A stretch of DNA of 60,115 nt from a virus (lineage: Duplodnaviria > Caudoviricetes). The notes beneath the pieces were generated by a model that worked only from the letters and a program-made list of their open reading frames with translations, did not search any database and was not told where the DNA came from. The position numbers and the translations under genes are program-made. The stretch spans positions 1 through 60,115 of IMG/VR virus record IMGVR_UViG_3300048592_000600, one strand, 5' to 3'. Positions 1 to 60,115 of the stretch are shown one piece after another (position 1 is the stretch's first letter; the number at the start of each line of letters is the position of its first letter).

Positions 1-104
1 GTCACGATTCGTCGCCCCGCTCCGTTTGCCACTGCGTTGTCGTTGTGCCTGCAGCTTGTTGCTGCAAAACGGATCGGGGCCGCGAGTCGTGAACCCTGTC
101 GTTG
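1..104. repeat. Terminal direct repeat (assembly circularisation overlap), copy 1
   Basis: Identical to 59990-60093. Confidence 0.95.
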
Positions 105-160
105 CTCGCGCGGCCTCTAAGGTTCCTGCCCCACCTTATGCCGCGCGAGCGATTTTCTTT
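2..160 (+). other. Two long RNA stem-loops in the untranslated leader; the second is followed by a U-rich tract (terminator-like)
   Basis: tcacgattcg/cgagtcgtga, gccccg/cggggc and tccgttt/aaacgga nest (2-92); ttgctcgcgcggc/gccgcgcgagcga (102-152) then ttttctttt. Confidence 0.6.
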
Positions 161-197
161 TGCACGTTATCAGGGCAATTCATCTTTGAATCAGCAT

Positions 198-318
198 CAC
201 GGAGAAGTAGGAGCCGGAGTGACCGGCATGGGATGTTCGGCAGGAGGTTGAGCATGATGGATCGACACCTGGGGTTAGCGCGTGCTGCCCCAGCGATCCG
301 TCAATCTTTCAAAGGAGA
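198..318 (+). promoter_or_regulatory. GGA-rich leader, putative CsrA-binding array or CsrB-like RNA
   Basis: GGA at 201, 210, 216, 231, 243, 259 and 314, directly upstream of csrA. Confidence 0.6.
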
Positions 319-325
319 ATCTTTC

Positions 326-520
326 ATGTTGGTACTTTCGAGGAAGCCGAGCCAAAGCATTGTGATCAACGACGACATCACAATCACGATCGTGGAAATC
401 AGAGGCGATAAGTGCCGTGTCGGCATTGAAGCGCCCAAGGACGTATCCGTACACCGGCGCGAAGTGTGGCTCGCAATCAAAGCCGGAACACCAGTGAAAC
501 CCGCTGCCCCTGCCGCATAG
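326..520 (+). CDS. csrA: Carbon storage regulator CsrA/RsmA (RNA-binding translational regulator)
   Basis: MLVLSRK..SIVI.DDITITIVEIRGDK.RVGIEAPKDVSVHRREV signature; AAGGAG RBS. Confidence 0.95.
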   Translation: MLVLSRKPSQSIVINDDITITIVEIRGDKCRVGIEAPKDVSVHRREVWLAIKAGTPVKPAAPAA

Positions 521-597
521 CTCCCGCAAGGCCGCGGCATCGGCCTATTTATTTCGACCCTGGCCTGGGTCATGGATCTTTCGATGGAGTGTAACCC

Positions 598-1278
598 GTG
601 GGTAAATCCCAAACCGCTGAATCTGTACTGGATGTTCCTTGCGAATTTTCTGCCCTCTCGATGGGCGGTGACAACACGGCTCGCCTCGGCGTCCGCATCA
701 GCAAGGAACTGCTCAAGATCAAGCAAGCCGAAGAACTCTTGTGCGGCCGGCGCTTGACTGGCTCGATCTTCCGTTGCCCGCCTGGGCAGAGCGTCGATCA
801 ACAAGTGTTTGAATGGGGCCCCGATGTAACGCAGATTGACAGCACGTTCGATGTCAAACGCTACGCATCCTCGCCCAAGTGGATTTCGTTCGGCATCACG
901 TTTGCTGCCGGCGAGATTGACAAGGAAGATCTGACGCACTTCCCGAAGACATCGGGCCGCTTCGTCATTGGCGAAGTCAAGGAGCTCGAAAAGCCCGAGC
1001 GCAAGACAGGCAAGGACAAGCCGCTGCCGGGACAGATGGGCCTCGGCGATGGCGACGATGCTTGGAAGGGCTACAAGCTCGAAAACCTTTTCAAAGGCGC
1101 ATTCCTCAAGACGCTGATTACTGCCGACCTTGTGACCTGCGGCGACGTCCAAGCGTATCTAGCCGACGGCAAGAAGAAGATCACCGATCTGCCCGGTGTC
1201 GGCGACAAGGCTGCCGAGAACTACGAGAACGTGATGGAACGCTTCTGGTTAGAGCGTCCTTGGGAGCCAACGGTGTAA
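598..1278 (+). CDS. Hypothetical protein with C-terminal HhH / alpha-CTD-like domain
   Basis: GTG start after GGAG; C-terminal LITADLVTCGDV...ITDLPGVGDKAA. Confidence 0.6.
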   Translation: MGKSQTAESVLDVPCEFSALSMGGDNTARLGVRISKELLKIKQAEELLCGRRLTGSIFRCPPGQSVDQQVFEWGPDVTQIDSTFDVKRYASSPKWISFGITFAAGEIDKEDLTHFPKTSGRFVIGEVKELEKPERKTGKDKPLPGQMGLGDGDDAWKGYKLENLFKGAFLKTLITADLVTCGDVQAYLADGKKKITDLPGVGDKAAENYENVMERFWLERPWEPTV

Positions 1279-55041: not shown

Positions 55042-55380
55042 ATGAACAAGCGCAAATGGTCCATGTCGGCTCGGCTGCCGACAGTAGATGACATTGAAAT
55101 CTACGATGACAACAGCGACAACCGCGACGTGATTGCATCGGTCCATAAGACCGGCGATGAGTCGTATGACCTTGAAGTTGTCTATCCCGTTGCGAAGTTG
55201 ATGGCATCGGCTCCCGAACTGCTCAAAGCCTGCAAATCGCTGGCCCATGTGCTCCGCTGGCATTTCTTGCCAATGGTCGAGAGCATGATCGGCAAGCCAG
55301 CAGCGCATGCCAAAGATGCCGAGATTGAGCAAGCCCTGGTGTTGCTGGAAACGCTGGGCGTGAGTCGTGAATCTGTTTAG
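55042..55380 (+). CDS. Hypothetical protein
   Basis: AKLMASAPELLKAC phage motif. Confidence 0.65.
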   Translation: MNKRKWSMSARLPTVDDIEIYDDNSDNRDVIASVHKTGDESYDLEVVYPVAKLMASAPELLKACKSLAHVLRWHFLPMVESMIGKPAAHAKDAEIEQALVLLETLGVSRESV

Positions 55381-55443
55381 CAGAGGGGCCGAGCGAAAGC
55401 TCGGTTAATGCGCTGCCCACTTCGGGCAACGGTCCCAAGCCCG
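55380..55443 (+). ncRNA. Twister self-cleaving ribozyme, circularly permuted (type-P5-like)
   Basis: GCA-GAGGG-[GCCGAGC GAAA GCUCGGU]-UAA-UGC-GCU-[GCCC ACUUC GGGC]-AA-CGGUCCCAAGCCCG. Confidence 0.8.
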
Positions 55444-55454
55444 TGAGGAGAACC

Positions 55455-56071: not shown

Positions 56072-56622
56072 GCGGGCCACCGGGCACGGGCAAGTCGGCC
56101 ACGGCTCGGGCGCTCGCTGCGGATCTTGGCTGCCCCGATGAGTTCTCGGGCTTCCTGACAATTTCTTCGGCAGACCTGACCGCCGACAATATCCGCGAAT
56201 ACTTTGGTCACAAGTTGCGGCTTCGCCCGCTGACCGGCTCGGGTTGGAAGTGCCTTTTGATTGAAGAACTCGATGGTGTTACGAGCAGTCAAGCAGAACG
56301 GCTCTTGAAAATTGCCTTGGACAAAAACAACTTGCCGGCCAAGACAACAATCATCGCCACAAGCAATAACGTGCTTGGCATTCCCCTGGCGCTCCGCAAT
56401 CGGTTCCGTCATGCCGAATTCAGCAATGGCCCCGAGTTTCGCAAGGCTTGCCTGGAACACTTGGCCCAACGCTGGCAGAAAGACGCGCCGGGCGAGCCAT
56501 TGCCGCGCACGTTCTGGCATTTCGGGCAATGCGGTGACGGCTTCTCGATGCGCTCGGCGTGCGATGAATACGCCCAGTGCCTTGAAATGCTGCAATCCTC
56601 TTTTACGCGAGGGCAGCAATGA
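55975..56622 (+). CDS. AAA+ ATPase, clamp-loader clade (RFC/DnaX/RarA-like)
   Basis: PQSLRDIIGQ, LLSGPPGTGKS, LIEELD, ALRNR. Confidence 0.85.
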   Translation: MQPQSLRDIIGQPIVEHLQRYAANPHPNCFLLSGPPGTGKSATARALAADLGCPDEFSGFLTISSADLTADNIREYFGHKLRLRPLTGSGWKCLLIEELDGVTSSQAERLLKIALDKNNLPAKTTIIATSNNVLGIPLALRNRFRHAEFSNGPEFRKACLEHLAQRWQKDAPGEPLPRTFWHFGQCGDGFSMRSACDEYAQCLEMLQSSFTRGQQ

Positions 56623-57140
56623 AATACAAGCGACACGGAGAAAGCCGGACTAAGCTGCATCGCGTTTGGGTCCACATGAAATGGCGATGCGCAAACCCAA
56701 ATTGCCCCGGTTACATCAATTATGGTGGGCGTGGAATTGTGGTCTGCAAAGAGTGGGAGGACGACTATTCGGCGTTTAGGGATTGGGCTATCGCGAATGG
56801 CTACTCCGAGGGACTGCAAATCGACCGCAAGAACAACAACAAGGGCTACTCGCCAGAGAATTGCCGTTTTGTAACCCGCTCACAAAACAACAAGAACCGG
56901 CGCGCTAGAAAAAATGGATCGTCACGATTCAAGGGTGTAAGTTACATGCGAACCCGCAAAAAGTGGCTGGCCTGCATTCGTCATGACGGAAGAACAAAGA
57001 ACCTTGGCCATTACGCAACAGCCCTTGCAGCGGCGTTAGCCTACGATGATTTCGCTTACGATCATTACACTGAATACGCCGGTTTGAATTTCCCTGAGCG
57101 CAAGAAGAAGAATTCCATGCACACCCAAGAAAGGAAATAG
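56619..57140 (+). CDS. HNH-AP2 homing endonuclease
   Basis: YGGRGIVVCKEW, IDRKNNNKGYSPENCRF; AP2 segment SRFKGV...KWLACI...LG.Y...AALAYD. Confidence 0.9.
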   Translation: MKYKRHGESRTKLHRVWVHMKWRCANPNCPGYINYGGRGIVVCKEWEDDYSAFRDWAIANGYSEGLQIDRKNNNKGYSPENCRFVTRSQNNKNRRARKNGSSRFKGVSYMRTRKKWLACIRHDGRTKNLGHYATALAAALAYDDFAYDHYTEYAGLNFPERKKKNSMHTQERK

Positions 57141-57142
57141 TC

Positions 57143-57481
57143 ATGGCTGGGCCTGCTGATGGCAAATACTACATACTCGATGGCCTAAAGCCCGTTGAGT
57201 GTGAGTTTGTAACTTGGATGGAGTGGTCCAACGAAACGGGCGGCTCTGGCTTCGAGGTTGCCAGCACGCGCGTTCGTGATCCCAATGGCAAAGAGTACGG
57301 CATCATCACGGCGTTCCGCGGCATCGGCAATTCGCTGTATGCCACCGTGATCTTTCCCAATCATGAGTGCGCCAAAGACATGGGCACTTACAACACGCTG
57401 ATCGATGCCAAGCACGGGCATCAAGAGCATGTCATTCGTCTTGTGCGCTCCGGTGTTTTTCAACTCGTCGATCAGGAATAG
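57143..57481 (+). CDS. Hypothetical protein
   Basis: YYILDG.KPV.C...W, AK.GH motif. Confidence 0.65.
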   Translation: MAGPADGKYYILDGLKPVECEFVTWMEWSNETGGSGFEVASTRVRDPNGKEYGIITAFRGIGNSLYATVIFPNHECAKDMGTYNTLIDAKHGHQEHVIRLVRSGVFQLVDQE

Positions 57482-57483
57482 TC

Positions 57484-58509
57484 ATGGCTAAGAAGAAGCT
57501 CCCAAAGCCAACAACCCTCGCACTTCCCAGCGGTCCCGTCTGCCATCTCTACGGCCGCGTTTCCGCCGAAGATCAATTGCTGGGCATGTCGCTCGAAAAG
57601 CAAGTGTACGAAGGCTGGCGGTTCTACGATTACAAACTCGAGCCGGAAGGCATCGCGCGCGGCGAAGCGTTCCAAGAGCGTGCCGTCAGCGCGTACCGGG
57701 TGGACTTTCTCAAGCGGCCCGAGGGCTCACGCATCAACTTGGCTCTGCGCCCCGGCGATCACGTTGTCATCCTGCGCTTCGACCGTGCGTTCCGTAACGT
57801 GCTCGACTTCCTCAATGTGTGGAAAGCCTGGGAGATACGCGACATCGTTCTGCATGTGCTCGATCAGCCGATGTTTGACATGAGCACGGCGCAGGGGGTG
57901 GCCAACGCGCAGATGATGGCCGTGTTCGCCGAGCACGAGTCTCGCATGAAGTCGCAACGGCTGCGCGAGATGGCGCATTTCAATCGGATGCAAGGGTTCC
58001 CGGCGATCAAGACCCGCCGCGGCCGCGCTTGGGATTTCCCGGGCATTAAAATGCGTTACACCGCCAAGGGCAAATCGTATCCCGAGTTCGAGCCAAAGTC
58101 GTTTGCCACCTATCGCTACATGCTGCAGATCATGGCCACTGGCAAGTACTCCTGGGATGAAGTTCGCGAGAAGTGCGAGAAGTACATGTGTGATCTGCTC
58201 GGCGTGACCTACATGCAATCGGCGTTTCACGTTCGCCGCTGGATCACGGAGTCCTCGATGCACCACTACTACATGCGCCGCAAAGAGCTCATCCCCATGT
58301 ACGAGCGGATGGGCCTGGACTTTCCCGAGGGGCTGCTCGAAATGCCCGAGCGGTACAACTACTTTGACCGCAAGCGAGCCAAGTGCCTGCATGACATGGA
58401 GCGCAAGCTGCCGAGTTATCTGCGCAAGGGAAAGCCGCTCACGCTGCCGGGCCATTATGCTGCTCAAGGCGAAACAGAACCTCGCAGGCCGGCTTCTGAG
58501 AGCCAGTGA
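57484..58509 (+). CDS. Serine recombinase (resolvase/invertase catalytic domain plus extended C-terminus)
   Basis: YGRVSAEDQ (catalytic S), ERAVSA, RPE, GD.VV..RFDRAFRN, AVFAEHES...QR. Confidence 0.9.
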   Translation: MAKKKLPKPTTLALPSGPVCHLYGRVSAEDQLLGMSLEKQVYEGWRFYDYKLEPEGIARGEAFQERAVSAYRVDFLKRPEGSRINLALRPGDHVVILRFDRAFRNVLDFLNVWKAWEIRDIVLHVLDQPMFDMSTAQGVANAQMMAVFAEHESRMKSQRLREMAHFNRMQGFPAIKTRRGRAWDFPGIKMRYTAKGKSYPEFEPKSFATYRYMLQIMATGKYSWDEVREKCEKYMCDLLGVTYMQSAFHVRRWITESSMHHYYMRRKELIPMYERMGLDFPEGLLEMPERYNYFDRKRAKCLHDMERKLPSYLRKGKPLTLPGHYAAQGETEPRRPASESQ

Positions 58510-59335
58510 CGCGAGGATCCAGGTAGTGCTTGCGCGTCACCTTTCGATCGCTGTGTCCAAGCAACTCCGTTGCATCCCCGCCACCAGCTTCATAGAACGA
58601 TGCCACGGTGCGGCGGATGCGATGGAACTTGGACCGCGGGCCAGCATCTACGCCAGCGGATTCAAGCAGCTTGCCGTACTTTAGCCAGAGATATGTTTCG
58701 CTATACGGCCACGGAAAAACAATGCTCCTGGCCGTGACCTTCTTTATCTCGCGCAGCAATCCAACTGTTTCGGCCGATAGCCGAAACGCTTTATCTGACC
58801 GTTTGCCCTTGCGCAGCTTGGCCGGCACCTTGAGCCAGCTACGTTTCAGGTCAACGTGCTGCCACTCAATGCCGCGCACGGCGCTGATCCGCTCGCCTGT
58901 GTCCCAGATCACCAGCAGCAAGGCTTTCCACCAAAGGTTGCACGGCACTCCCTCGAAGCGGCCGTAGATTCGATCACACGCCGCGAAGATCGCGCGTATC
59001 TCCTCCTCCATCCAGGCCATCGGAATGACCTCGGGTTCCGTTTGCGCCGGCACATCAGGCCAGCGATCGACATAACCCTTACGAGCCGCATAATTCCACA
59101 TGGCCAGTAGATTTGACCGCTCTTTGTTGATTGTGTACGGGCTCAATTCTCGGTCGCGCAAGTACGATAGGAAGCGATTCACGGTCAGGTCGCTCAGGTC
59201 ATCTAGCGTTGCGGACCTGCCTAGAAATCGCTCGAACGCACGAATCGTCGAGCAATAAAGCTCTTTTGTCCTGGGAGAGCTCGAGCGCAGCTTCATCACT
59301 GCGTACAGATCGCGGTAGAAATCTTTTAGTTGCAT
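58439..59335 (-). CDS. int: Tyrosine recombinase / integrase
   Basis: DTGERISAV (R), K, FHRIRRT (HxxR), LLGHS, HY; N-terminal core-binding domain. Confidence 0.93.
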   Translation of the reverse strand: MQLKDFYRDLYAVMKLRSSSPRTKELYCSTIRAFERFLGRSATLDDLSDLTVNRFLSYLRDRELSPYTINKERSNLLAMWNYAARKGYVDRWPDVPAQTEPEVIPMAWMEEEIRAIFAACDRIYGRFEGVPCNLWWKALLLVIWDTGERISAVRGIEWQHVDLKRSWLKVPAKLRKGKRSDKAFRLSAETVGLLREIKKVTARSIVFPWPYSETYLWLKYGKLLESAGVDAGPRSKFHRIRRTVASFYEAGGGDATELLGHSDRKVTRKHYLDPRVTGSQKPACEVLFRLEQHNGPAA

Positions 59336-59423
59336 GGATTGGTGCCCTTTGATGGGAGCCTAGCACTCACGGGCATCCATGCAAGAAAATAGTTGTTTTG
59401 CCCGGTTTTCCAGATTCTTACTT

Positions 59424-59441
59424 AAATCCTGTCCTCCCCGC
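59424..59441 (+). other. Candidate attP core resembling a tRNA 3' end
   Basis: AAATCCTGTCCTCCCCGC fits T-loop end, 5-nt T-stem strand, 7-nt acceptor strand and G discriminator; between int and the xis-like gene. Confidence 0.4.
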
Positions 59442-59609
59442 TTTTGCCTAAGTTGCGTATTTATCGCAGCTTTAGGAGATGCACGAACTATAGTTCGTGA
59501 TAATCCATTGTCAATGTTTTATTCATTTTTACAGGAAAGATTGCCGGAGCGCCGGGAAACCGGGGGCTTGCCTTTGAGCCTACTGCTAACGCTCCGGCGA
59601 TCTTTTCGC

Positions 59610-59637
59610 TTGAAACTATAGCAGCATCGACTAGTAT
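59610..59637 (+). promoter_or_regulatory. Candidate sigma70 promoter for the xis-like gene
   Basis: TTGAAA-N16-TAGTAT. Confidence 0.4.
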
Positions 59638-59644
59638 TAGGAAC

Positions 59645-59848
59645 ATGAGCATGGCACTCGGGAATTTTCTGACAACCGCTGAAACAGCGAAAGCGCTCGA
59701 CCTTTCAATCTGCCGAGTGCATCAATTCGTGTCTAAGAAACGATTGACGCCTGCACAAAAGGTCGGCTCGCTTCTTTTCTTTGACAAAGAAACCGTCGAG
59801 GAATTCAAGAAAACCCCGCGTAAACACGGGCGTCCAAAAAAATCTTGA
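59645..59848 (+). CDS. Excisionase-like HTH_17 protein
   Basis: FLTTAETAKALDLS..RVHQF...RL..AQKVG..LFFD; C-terminal GRP AT-hook; divergent from int. Confidence 0.82.
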   Translation: MSMALGNFLTTAETAKALDLSICRVHQFVSKKRLTPAQKVGSLLFFDKETVEEFKKTPRKHGRPKKS

Positions 59849-59867
59849 AAATCTTTTCAACAACCTA

Positions 59868-59896
59868 TTGAAAAAGATAGAAGCCCTTTCTATATT
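59868..59896 (+). promoter_or_regulatory. sigma70-type promoter reading across the junction into the csrA operon, with an overlapping palindrome
   Basis: TTGAAA-N17-TATATT; ATAGAA-N5-TTCTAT overlaps the spacer and -10. Confidence 0.6.
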
Positions 59897-59989
59897 TTCC
59901 TCCGTTGATCGACAAGTCGTTTAGCAGCGACCTGATCAGCAAAGCAAAGGCACTTCTTCGCGGACTTCTCCGCTAGTCGTGCAAGTTTC

Positions 59990-60115
59990 GTCACGATTCG
60001 TCGCCCCGCTCCGTTTGCCACTGCGTTGTCGTTGTGCCTGCAGCTTGTTGCTGCAAAACGGATCGGGGCCGCGAGTCGTGAACCCTGTCGTTGGTCGCGC
60101 GGGCGCGAAGGGTAC
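59990..60115. repeat. Terminal direct repeat, copy 2
   Basis: Identical to 1-104, then a degenerate match to 105-126. Confidence 0.95.

Follow-up and report, generated by a model that had tools for sequence, protein, structure and literature searches.

The closest described counterpart of the locus analyzed here is the csrA gene of E. coli, whose own leader carries several GGA sites, one of them at the ribosome-binding site (RBS), and whose translation is autorepressed (Yakhnin et al. 2011, cited in the part of PMC7652899 consulted). The same part of that source describes the E. coli glgC leader, in which a site in a hairpin loop is combined with a second at the RBS. Bridging has been shown for CsrA sites 10–63 nt apart, and the CsrA ligands obtained by SELEX have a GGAU consensus, presented mostly in 6-nt loops on stems of 4 bp or less (PMC7652899, same part). 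Phage-borne csrA/rsmA genes have also been published (Sobrero and Valverde 2020, PMC7366521; Campa et al. 2021, PMC8450108), and the presence of csrA in a phage correlates with a host that carries csrA as well (PMC8450108, in the sections available). As far as the available sections of these two papers extend, they report the genes and nothing on their leaders. No report of GGA arrays in phage csrA leaders was found among the papers listed by the literature searches. Phage csrA genes have been described; the way in which a phage sets the dose of a global host regulator has not. The present locus is a phage csrA preceded by a GGA-rich tract. We consider it roughly an even bet (probability about 0.5) that this tract is part of a CsrA-responsive leader exerting negative feedback on the phage's own csrA.

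The window, that is, the whole stretch of DNA analyzed, is an entire virus record of 60,115 bases, filed as linear and with an estimated completeness of 97%. Profile matches identified genes for the large terminase, portal, major head protein, tail proteins and a DnaB-like helicase, and, over the whole record, two DNA methyltransferases and HNH endonucleases. Since a tyrosine integrase (58439–59335, minus strand) and a serine recombinase (57367–58509), both profile matches, stand alongside the phage structural genes, the record is that of a temperate tailed phage. The csrA gene occupies 326–520 on the plus strand and encodes 64 amino acids. Its product matched Pfam CsrA (PF02599) over profile positions 1–52 of 53 with an E value of 7.6e-25 and a score of 87.1 bits against a cut-off of 27, a match confirmed on the whole record. 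PHROG 9500, ‘CsrA-like regulator’, was matched as well (1.8e-20). The phage protein aligned with RsmE (2JPP) without gaps over residues 1–56, its N-terminus MLVLSRK opposite MLILTRK. R44, whose change to alanine disables a CsrA RNA-binding surface (PMC7652899, part consulted), is kept, with VHRRE opposite the VHREE of RsmE. Judged by its sequence, the phage protein is a full-length CsrA/RsmA family member. The original prediction of a phage csrA is borne out by the Pfam match at 326–520 and by the phage gene matches in the record.

The nearest cellular CsrA proteins (62–77% identity among the best 80) are nearly all from Planctomycetota, mainly Pirellulales, and the phage probably infects Planctomycetota. 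FliW was encoded away from csrA in all five such genomes examined, and no phage-encoded FliW was found in the record. All 10 GenBank phage records that matched the phage CsrA were Pseudomonas phages, with 45–47% identity, and blastn of 1–600 against GenBank phages gave no match. An attB or host copy was sought with 1–330 and 59336–59995 in 401 Planctomycetia genomes. The attachment site was not located in these genomes; matches were of 23–36 nt only, occurring in 12 of the 401 in one search (E up to 0.01) and in 4 of the 401 in the other (E up to 0.001), and are read as chance.

Seven GGA motifs, starting at 201, 210, 216, 231, 243, 259 and 314, lie within 116 nt upstream of csrA. All seven that had been claimed for about 115 nt of non-coding sequence were recovered (201–316), and the individual motifs named with them were located as CACGGAG (198–204), GATGGATC (256–263) and AAAGGAG at the RBS (311–317). 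Folding of 196–335 produced a multi-helix junction (z = −3.29; 1 of 200 shuffles as stable), and in this minimum free energy (MFE) fold the start codon region pairs with approximately 222–230. On the plus strand, 233–255 folds into a 9-bp hairpin that presents AGGAG, with GGA 243, in a 5-nt loop. GGA 243 had an unpaired probability of 0.99–1.00 in all four folding contexts, and the loop is, on these models, the best candidate for a high-affinity CsrA site. GGA 314 lies within the RBS AAAGGAG, 8 nt before ATG 326, in a translation start region (302–325, plus strand) that reads AATCTTTC, AAAGGAG, AATCTTTC, ATG. A weak hairpin with the flanking UCUUUC leaves this GGA half-paired.

The predicted hairpin between ctgggg (269–274) and ccccag (288–293) does pair, as the inner stem of a longer hairpin of about 16–17 bp with an internal loop (256–300, plus strand; −32.0 kcal/mol for 250–325). 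The longer hairpin buries GGA 259, whose unpaired probability is 0.00. GGA 216 and 231 were mostly paired over the four folding contexts, while GGA 210 took a loop position in the shortest construct (196–335) only. The check by folding, which asked whether the GGA motifs sit in loops, thus placed one of the seven in a loop when longer contexts were folded and two of the seven with 196–335.

With GGA 243 in a loop and GGA 314 in the RBS, the leader fits the two-site layout of glgC, and the original prediction of an autoregulatory leader agrees with this pattern of one GGA in the RBS and one in a stable loop. Two features of autoregulated leaders were observed, namely A(N)GGA sites spaced 10–60 nt apart in the gene's own leader and one site overlapping the RBS. 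Translation of csrA is most likely sensitive to CsrA, that of the phage as well as that of the host.

The E. coli csrA leader differs in the number of sites, four there (PMC7652899, part consulted) as against seven GGA here. Unlike E. coli csrA, the present gene is phage-borne, comes from a Planctomycetota-type lineage with FliW and has a leader without sequence similarity, probably about 400 nt long and containing an intrinsic-terminator-like hairpin. Compared with glgC, 71 nt of sequence separate sites 243 and 314, more than the 10–63 nt over which bridging has been shown, and the two would come near each other only if the 256–300 hairpin forms. The 5-nt loop is carried by a 9-bp stem, whereas 6 nt on a short stem is typical. 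The spacing and the loop geometry, together with motifs that are mostly GGAG and not GGAU, count against a CsrA-responsive leader, as do shuffle P values of 0.07–0.09 and a strong terminator, T1, between the upstream promoter-like site P2 and csrA.

The upstream context of csrA is not confined to the left end of the window. Bases 59990–60093 are identical to bases 1–104, and the sequence goes on in the final 22 bases with six mismatches, of which five are to G. We interpret this as an overlap left by assembly, its tip carrying errors, and the genome is circular or terminally redundant. Because the ends overlap, the right end of the window supplies the DNA 5′ of position 1. The original prediction was correct in the features it placed upstream of csrA within the window but missed this overlap, and the real context lies partly at the right end.

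After joining of the ends, the gene upstream of csrA was found to be a 67-amino-acid HTH_17-type gene (59645–59848, plus strand; Pfam HTH_17, E = 7.7e-5, 23.3 bits, below the 27-bit cut-off). About 20 nt past its stop codon is P2 (59868–59896, plus strand), TTGAAA-17-TATATT, with 10 of 12 matches in a hexamer scan. P2 is the likely start of the csrA transcript. Downstream, a long branched hairpin was folded at 2–92 (also 59991–60081) on the plus strand; for 1–170 the MFE was −88.1 kcal/mol with z = −8.65, and 0 of 200 shuffles were as stable. Next comes T1 (101–163, plus strand; −33.3 kcal/mol), a terminator-like element with a 14-bp outer GC-rich stem and a 6-bp inner stem, in which the hairpin at 101–154 is followed by GATTTTCTTTTG. 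T1 was missed by a consensus terminator scan because its loop exceeds 8 nt. The scan detected T2 (529–556, plus strand), where a 6-bp stem is followed by ATTTATTTCG; T2 is weak, RNAfold of 520–565 giving −11.3 kcal/mol with a different pairing. The leader module had been described without these terminator-like hairpins, one on each side of csrA, and its account is to that extent incomplete. No promoter-like site of at least 8/12 was found between T1 and csrA in a sigma-70-type hexamer scan (164–325), and TAnnnT is absent from the same interval by eye. Expression of csrA would then involve either read-through of T1 from an upstream promoter or a promoter of an unrecognised type.

For a CsrA-responsive leader, the following course of events is proposed. 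Transcription would start at P2, just past the HTH_17 gene, and the RNA would pass the stable branched hairpin and T1, at which some read-through is required, before the purine-rich tract is reached. A CsrA dimer may then dock on the AGGAG loop at 233–255 and bridge to GGA 314 in the RBS, the 256–300 hairpin drawing sites 243 and 314 near each other and the single-stranded GGA at 201–218 possibly serving as extra or entry sites. Bound CsrA would block the ribosome, and CsrA output would plateau shortly after firing of the early operon; a high level of free host CsrA would keep it low as well.

The arrangement of genes was compared with that of kin phages. Four loci are related by terminase, with 45–46% identity, and csrA is present in one of the four records, the complete G001; the other three records are 15–32% complete. 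The G001 record, 58.7 kb long and bounded by direct terminal repeats, is 46% identical to the window in the terminase, 45% in the major head protein and 43–51% in the portal. Its order is an HTH_17 gene (E = 2.4e-6), a promoter, the csrA leader, csrA and the early genes. The promoter, TTGACA-17-TATAGT, lies between two ACGCATGCGT palindromes and, as with P2 in the window, about 20 nt past the stop codon of the HTH gene. Since G001 has the same gene order, the succession of HTH gene, promoter, csrA and early genes is shared at the family level. Pairwise similarity of the HTH proteins of the window and G001 was not significant (E = 0.49), the Pfam family alone being in common, and the csrA products are 40% identical.

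The plus-strand tract at 198–262, which holds six of the GGA motifs (201, 210, 216, 231, 243 and 259), is purine-rich and G-skewed by composition counts. It contains 43% G and 68% purine (top 0.5% of 65-nt windows), with a GC skew of +0.47 (top 0.1% of windows). Six GGA were observed against 2.9 expected from base composition, and the cluster is strand-specific, with six GGA and no TCC. Six GGA in 61 nt is the plus-strand maximum in 60 kb and is attained at this site alone; on the minus strand there is one place with seven GGA in 61 nt. Seven GGA in 128 nt occur in 0.09% of windows, at three places in the record. Among the 130-nt upstream regions of 48 genes, the csrA leader ranks first with seven GGA, the runner-up having five.

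Shuffling gave a different picture. With dinucleotide shuffles, P was 0.087 for 198–325 and 0.073 for 198–262 (repeats 0.094–0.095), and a mononucleotide shuffle of the leader gave P = 0.028. A GGA density above that of shuffled sequence, proposed with the original prediction as a check, therefore holds in part: the tract is at the genome-wide top on the plus strand but is not significant in dinucleotide shuffles (P 0.07–0.09). Whether the excess is beyond chance depends on the null model; it is so against the genome and not against the tract's own composition. Much of the GGA excess stems from the G/A-rich composition.

The main rival to a CsrA-responsive leader is a by-product of composition, in which a purine-rich, G-skewed leader contains many GGA and has no CsrA role, being either a ribosome standby region with Shine-Dalgarno-like sequence or drifted non-coding DNA. 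We regard this as possible, if somewhat unlikely. The dinucleotide shuffles point to it, and five of the seven motifs are GGAG, the core of the Shine-Dalgarno sequence. Most GGA are paired or partly open, and equally dense clusters exist inside coding sequence, at the two other places with 7 in 128 nt and at the minus-strand place with 7 in 61 nt. Against it, the densest plus-strand cluster of the 60 kb adjoins the one gene whose product reads GGA. In addition, the shuffles are conservative because the GGA array itself creates the G/A richness. As the shuffles were not significant, the case for a CsrA role draws on the location of the tract and not on motif statistics alone. If the motifs are merely compositional, the locus is an ordinary phage csrA with a purine-rich leader.

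The CSRA_TARGET criteria were re-implemented from the part of PMC4066749 available, with upstream lengths of our own choice. With 100 nt upstream, csrA alone passed among the 48 genes, and with 150 or 200 nt, csrA and one other gene passed. The csrA leader has the most primary sites of the 48 genes (six), with seven qualifying pairs. These re-implemented published sequence rules rank csrA first among the predicted CsrA targets of the phage, which again argues against a purely compositional origin.

To place these counts beside those of related genes, csrA relatives were taken from 46 viral-contig loci, the best 80 species-genome loci, the best 80 metagenome-contig loci and the one kin phage. 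Leaders were scored for 198 of the 207 loci, those with a usable start codon and 200 nt upstream, and nine were dropped. CsrA identity was at best 79% in viral contigs, 62–77% in species genomes (best 80) and up to 80% in metagenome contigs (best 80). Only two of the 198 leaders, the best-80 lists included, reached seven GGA in 130 nt; both are viral (L021 and L045), with eight each. Six GGA in 61 nt were likewise reached by two of the 198 related leaders (best-80 lists included). The composition-corrected z of the window's leader, 1.70, was equalled or exceeded by 27 of 189 non-duplicate leaders, again with the best-80 lists included, which favors a compositional origin. So does the leader of G001, the one csrA-bearing kin record, where a GGA-rich structured leader was not conserved: it is about 45 nt long and has one GGA.

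Cellular leaders, mostly from Planctomycetota and among the best 80, were GGA-enriched (12 of 77 at P < 0.05; mean z of +0.76), and viral csrA leaders as a group were not (2 of 44 at P < 0.05). The leaders of L021 (119 nt) and L045 (112 nt) are non-coding throughout, and their dinucleotide shuffle P values are 0.003 and 0.014; the gene upstream of the leader is transposase-like in L021 and specifies tRNA-Met in L045. That two unrelated viral csrA leaders are significantly enriched argues against composition as the whole explanation. Neither shares sequence with the window's leader, and an alignment of six viral leaders revealed no shared sequence. The leader type of L021, L045 and the window was seen in 3 of 48 viral loci and in 0 of 151 others (Fisher P = 0.013, best-80 lists included); without the window, which was chosen for this property, the viral count is 2 of 47 and P = 0.055. 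Close relatives in which conservation or covariation of the leader could be followed were found neither in viral contigs or GenBank phages nor among the best 80 species-genome and metagenome matches. Other viral contigs that carry csrA showed almost no synteny with the window; in two of them, L018 and L022, the upstream DNA includes an integrase-like gene.

CsrB/CsrC and RsmX/Y/Z, like the phage tract, have a GGA cluster on one strand and a purine-rich non-coding sequence with many sites per molecule. Such sponge RNAs present most of their GGA in loops. The original prediction had offered a CsrB-like sponge as an alternative to the autoregulatory leader. A discrete RNA of about 110 nt (approximately 193–305) would be made from a weak or unconventional promoter, end at the 256–300 hairpin and act as a sponge for host or phage CsrA, with read-through of the hairpin yielding csrA mRNA. 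A strong hairpin preceded by six GGA within about 65 nt would suit this, T1 upstream would insulate the unit, and a candidate of this size and number of sites is akin to RsmY/RsmZ. An Rfam scan of 1–700 at E up to 10, however, returned five weak matches, all with E > 2 and none to a Csr/Rsm family, and none in the region reached the gathering score. The sigma-70-type scan (at least 8/12) showed no promoter of its own in 164–325. The 256–300 hairpin is followed by CAATCTTTCAAAGG and not by a U-run, whereas T1 and T2 carry T-runs. Unlike the sponge RNAs, the phage tract runs into the csrA RBS and has most of its GGA outside loops, only one or two of the seven being in hairpin loops. Furthermore, the likely host lineage carries FliW (5 of 5 genomes examined), and the occurrence of fliW correlates negatively with that of the BarA-UvrY system, on which Csr sRNAs depend (PMC7652899, part consulted). 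A separate CsrB-like decoy RNA is not supported, and we consider it very unlikely.

The leader might also contain translated frames, some GGA being the RBSs of these frames. One would be a 7-codon mini-ORF from ATG 228 to TGA 249–251, with GGAG (216–219) eight nt before it. The other would begin at the in-frame ATG 254, with AGGAGG (242–247) six nt before it, and add 24 residues to CsrA or couple into csrA. GGAG and AGGAGG stand at ideal distances from the two ATGs, and the reading frame of csrA extends without interruption from the window's left end as far as 520. There is also a precedent in E. coli iraD, where CsrA acts via a short coupled upstream ORF (Park et al. 2017, cited in the part of PMC7652899 consulted). 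Both loci have a multi-site leader and a short upstream frame with a GGA-containing RBS; unlike that of iraD, the phage mini-ORF stops 74 nt short of csrA, with no overlap. Composition argues against translation, the GC3 of 254–325 being 0.46 as compared with 0.70 for phage genes and 0.65 for csrA. CsrA relatives from the three collections (best-80 lists included) align from residue 1, and all 198 scored leaders have a start codon there. ATG 326 has its own strong AAAGGAG, ATG 254 lies within the stem of the 233–255 hairpin, and chance pairings of this kind are frequent in a G/A-rich tract. Such frames are quite unlikely to account for the motifs. Coding readings of the tract itself (a plus-strand ORF at 102–251, a minus-strand ORF at 136–255 and the extension 254–325) were rejected by their GC3, and the upstream ORFs look non-coding, with GC3 of 0.46–0.57 against 0.70 in phage genes.

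The preferred reading therefore remains a CsrA-responsive leader with negative feedback. If the leader is a real CsrA sensor, expression of phage CsrA would be coupled to the free CsrA pool of the host, a simple form of feedback placed where the early operon begins. This would also offer an initial point of entry to CsrA control in Planctomycetota, whose cellular csrA leaders look GGA-enriched as well. In an extended form that we think unlikely, the leader itself would soak up host CsrA on early transcription, and phage CsrA would stay off until host CsrA is titrated, as a regulator-plus-decoy switch; the original prediction envisaged such titration, or a timer, as putative roles of the module. 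The lineage would be of the FliW type (Planctomycetota), for which no report of a Csr decoy RNA was found in the titles and abstracts listed for csrA and Planctomycetes. If so, L021 and L045, with eight GGA each, would make the switch a recurrent phage strategy and not a one-off.

The csrA gene is the first in a block of 23 plus-strand ORFs of at least 80 amino acids that extends to 22424, in agreement with its predicted position at the head of the rightward transcript. The next gene (598–1278, plus strand) encodes 226 amino acids from a GTG start at 598. Its product belongs to no family, with no Pfam or PHROG match, and no relative was found in viral contigs or metagenome contigs. The two further motifs predicted before this gene, CATGGAT and GATGGAG, are present on the plus strand within 571–600, with GGA at 574 and 586. 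The second of these, GATGGAG, is the ribosome-binding site of the 598–1278 gene.

The two ends of the window (1-126 and 59990-60115) overlap: 104 bases are identical, and the last 22 bases of the overlap differ at six positions, with a change to G at five. As read from its sequence, the record, filed as linear, is circular or terminally redundant. The open csrA frame extends about 340 nt 5' of the ATG at 326, running through the end overlap (59979-60113 and 2-520, + strand). This upstream extension is argued to be non-coding because its GC3 is 0.56.

Upstream of csrA, a promoter-like site precedes some 260 nt of RNA predicted to fold very stably, together with a terminator-like hairpin (59868-59989 plus 1-163). 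The fold of window positions 1-170 gave a z of -8.65. Neither a convincing ORF nor an Rfam match was found across 59868-59989 plus 1-163, and the structured region may represent a small RNA of the phage, may act in attenuation or antitermination, or may belong to the attachment region.

The motif ATCTTT is concentrated around csrA, with nine of its 37 occurrences (both strands) falling in 59320-59989 and 1-600, which make up about 2% of the genome. Two copies are arranged as an inverted repeat across the -35 element of the promoter-like site at 59868-59896 (ATCTTTTCAA...TTGAAAAAGAT). In addition, the csrA ribosome-binding site (311-317) is flanked by the direct repeat AATCTTTC. The ATCTTT repeat may serve as an operator half-site or as an anti-Shine–Dalgarno element. 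In the distant kin phage G001, the csrA promoter (TTGACA-17-TATAGT; locus L212, 1420-1500) carries the palindrome ACGCATGCGT twice, in the spacer and in the leader. These two palindromes are likely to be repressor operators.

GGA-rich leaders were also found at other viral csrA genes. The non-coding leaders of two viral contig loci, L021 (2882-3000, 119 nt) and L045 (2889-3000, 112 nt), each contain eight GGA motifs, with P values of 0.003 and 0.014, respectively, against dinucleotide shuffles. In both, a strong GC-rich hairpin lies roughly 20-25 nt 5' of the start codon, as in the window.

Cellular csrA leaders, taken from the best 80 species-genome loci (L048-L127, mostly Planctomycetota), average 3.7 GGA per 130 nt compared with 2.05 in their flanks. 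Shared by many of these loci are CAAAGGAAUG..GGA immediately 5' of the start codon and, some 90-100 nt upstream, a promoter of the form TTGACT-17-TAnnnT. Corrected for composition, GGA enrichment reached P<0.05 in 12 of 77 cellular leaders. The counts, shared motifs and enrichment hint that csrA self-control is widespread in the phylum.

Elsewhere in the window, a serine recombinase gene (+) and a tyrosine integrase gene (-) lie tail to tail at 57367-59335 with overlapping 3' ends. A search of window 1-330 and 59336-59995 against 401 Planctomycetia genomes found no attachment site. A type-P5 twister ribozyme match (55379-55444, +; 53.9 bits against a gathering score of 37.6, E = 1.9e-8) marks the sole RNA family reaching the Rfam gathering level in the whole record. 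The gene at 56619-57137 (+), which adjoins an AAA ATPase gene, encodes a 173-aa protein that matches the AP2 domain weakly (29.7 bits, under the 33.3-bit cut-off; E = 8.1e-7).
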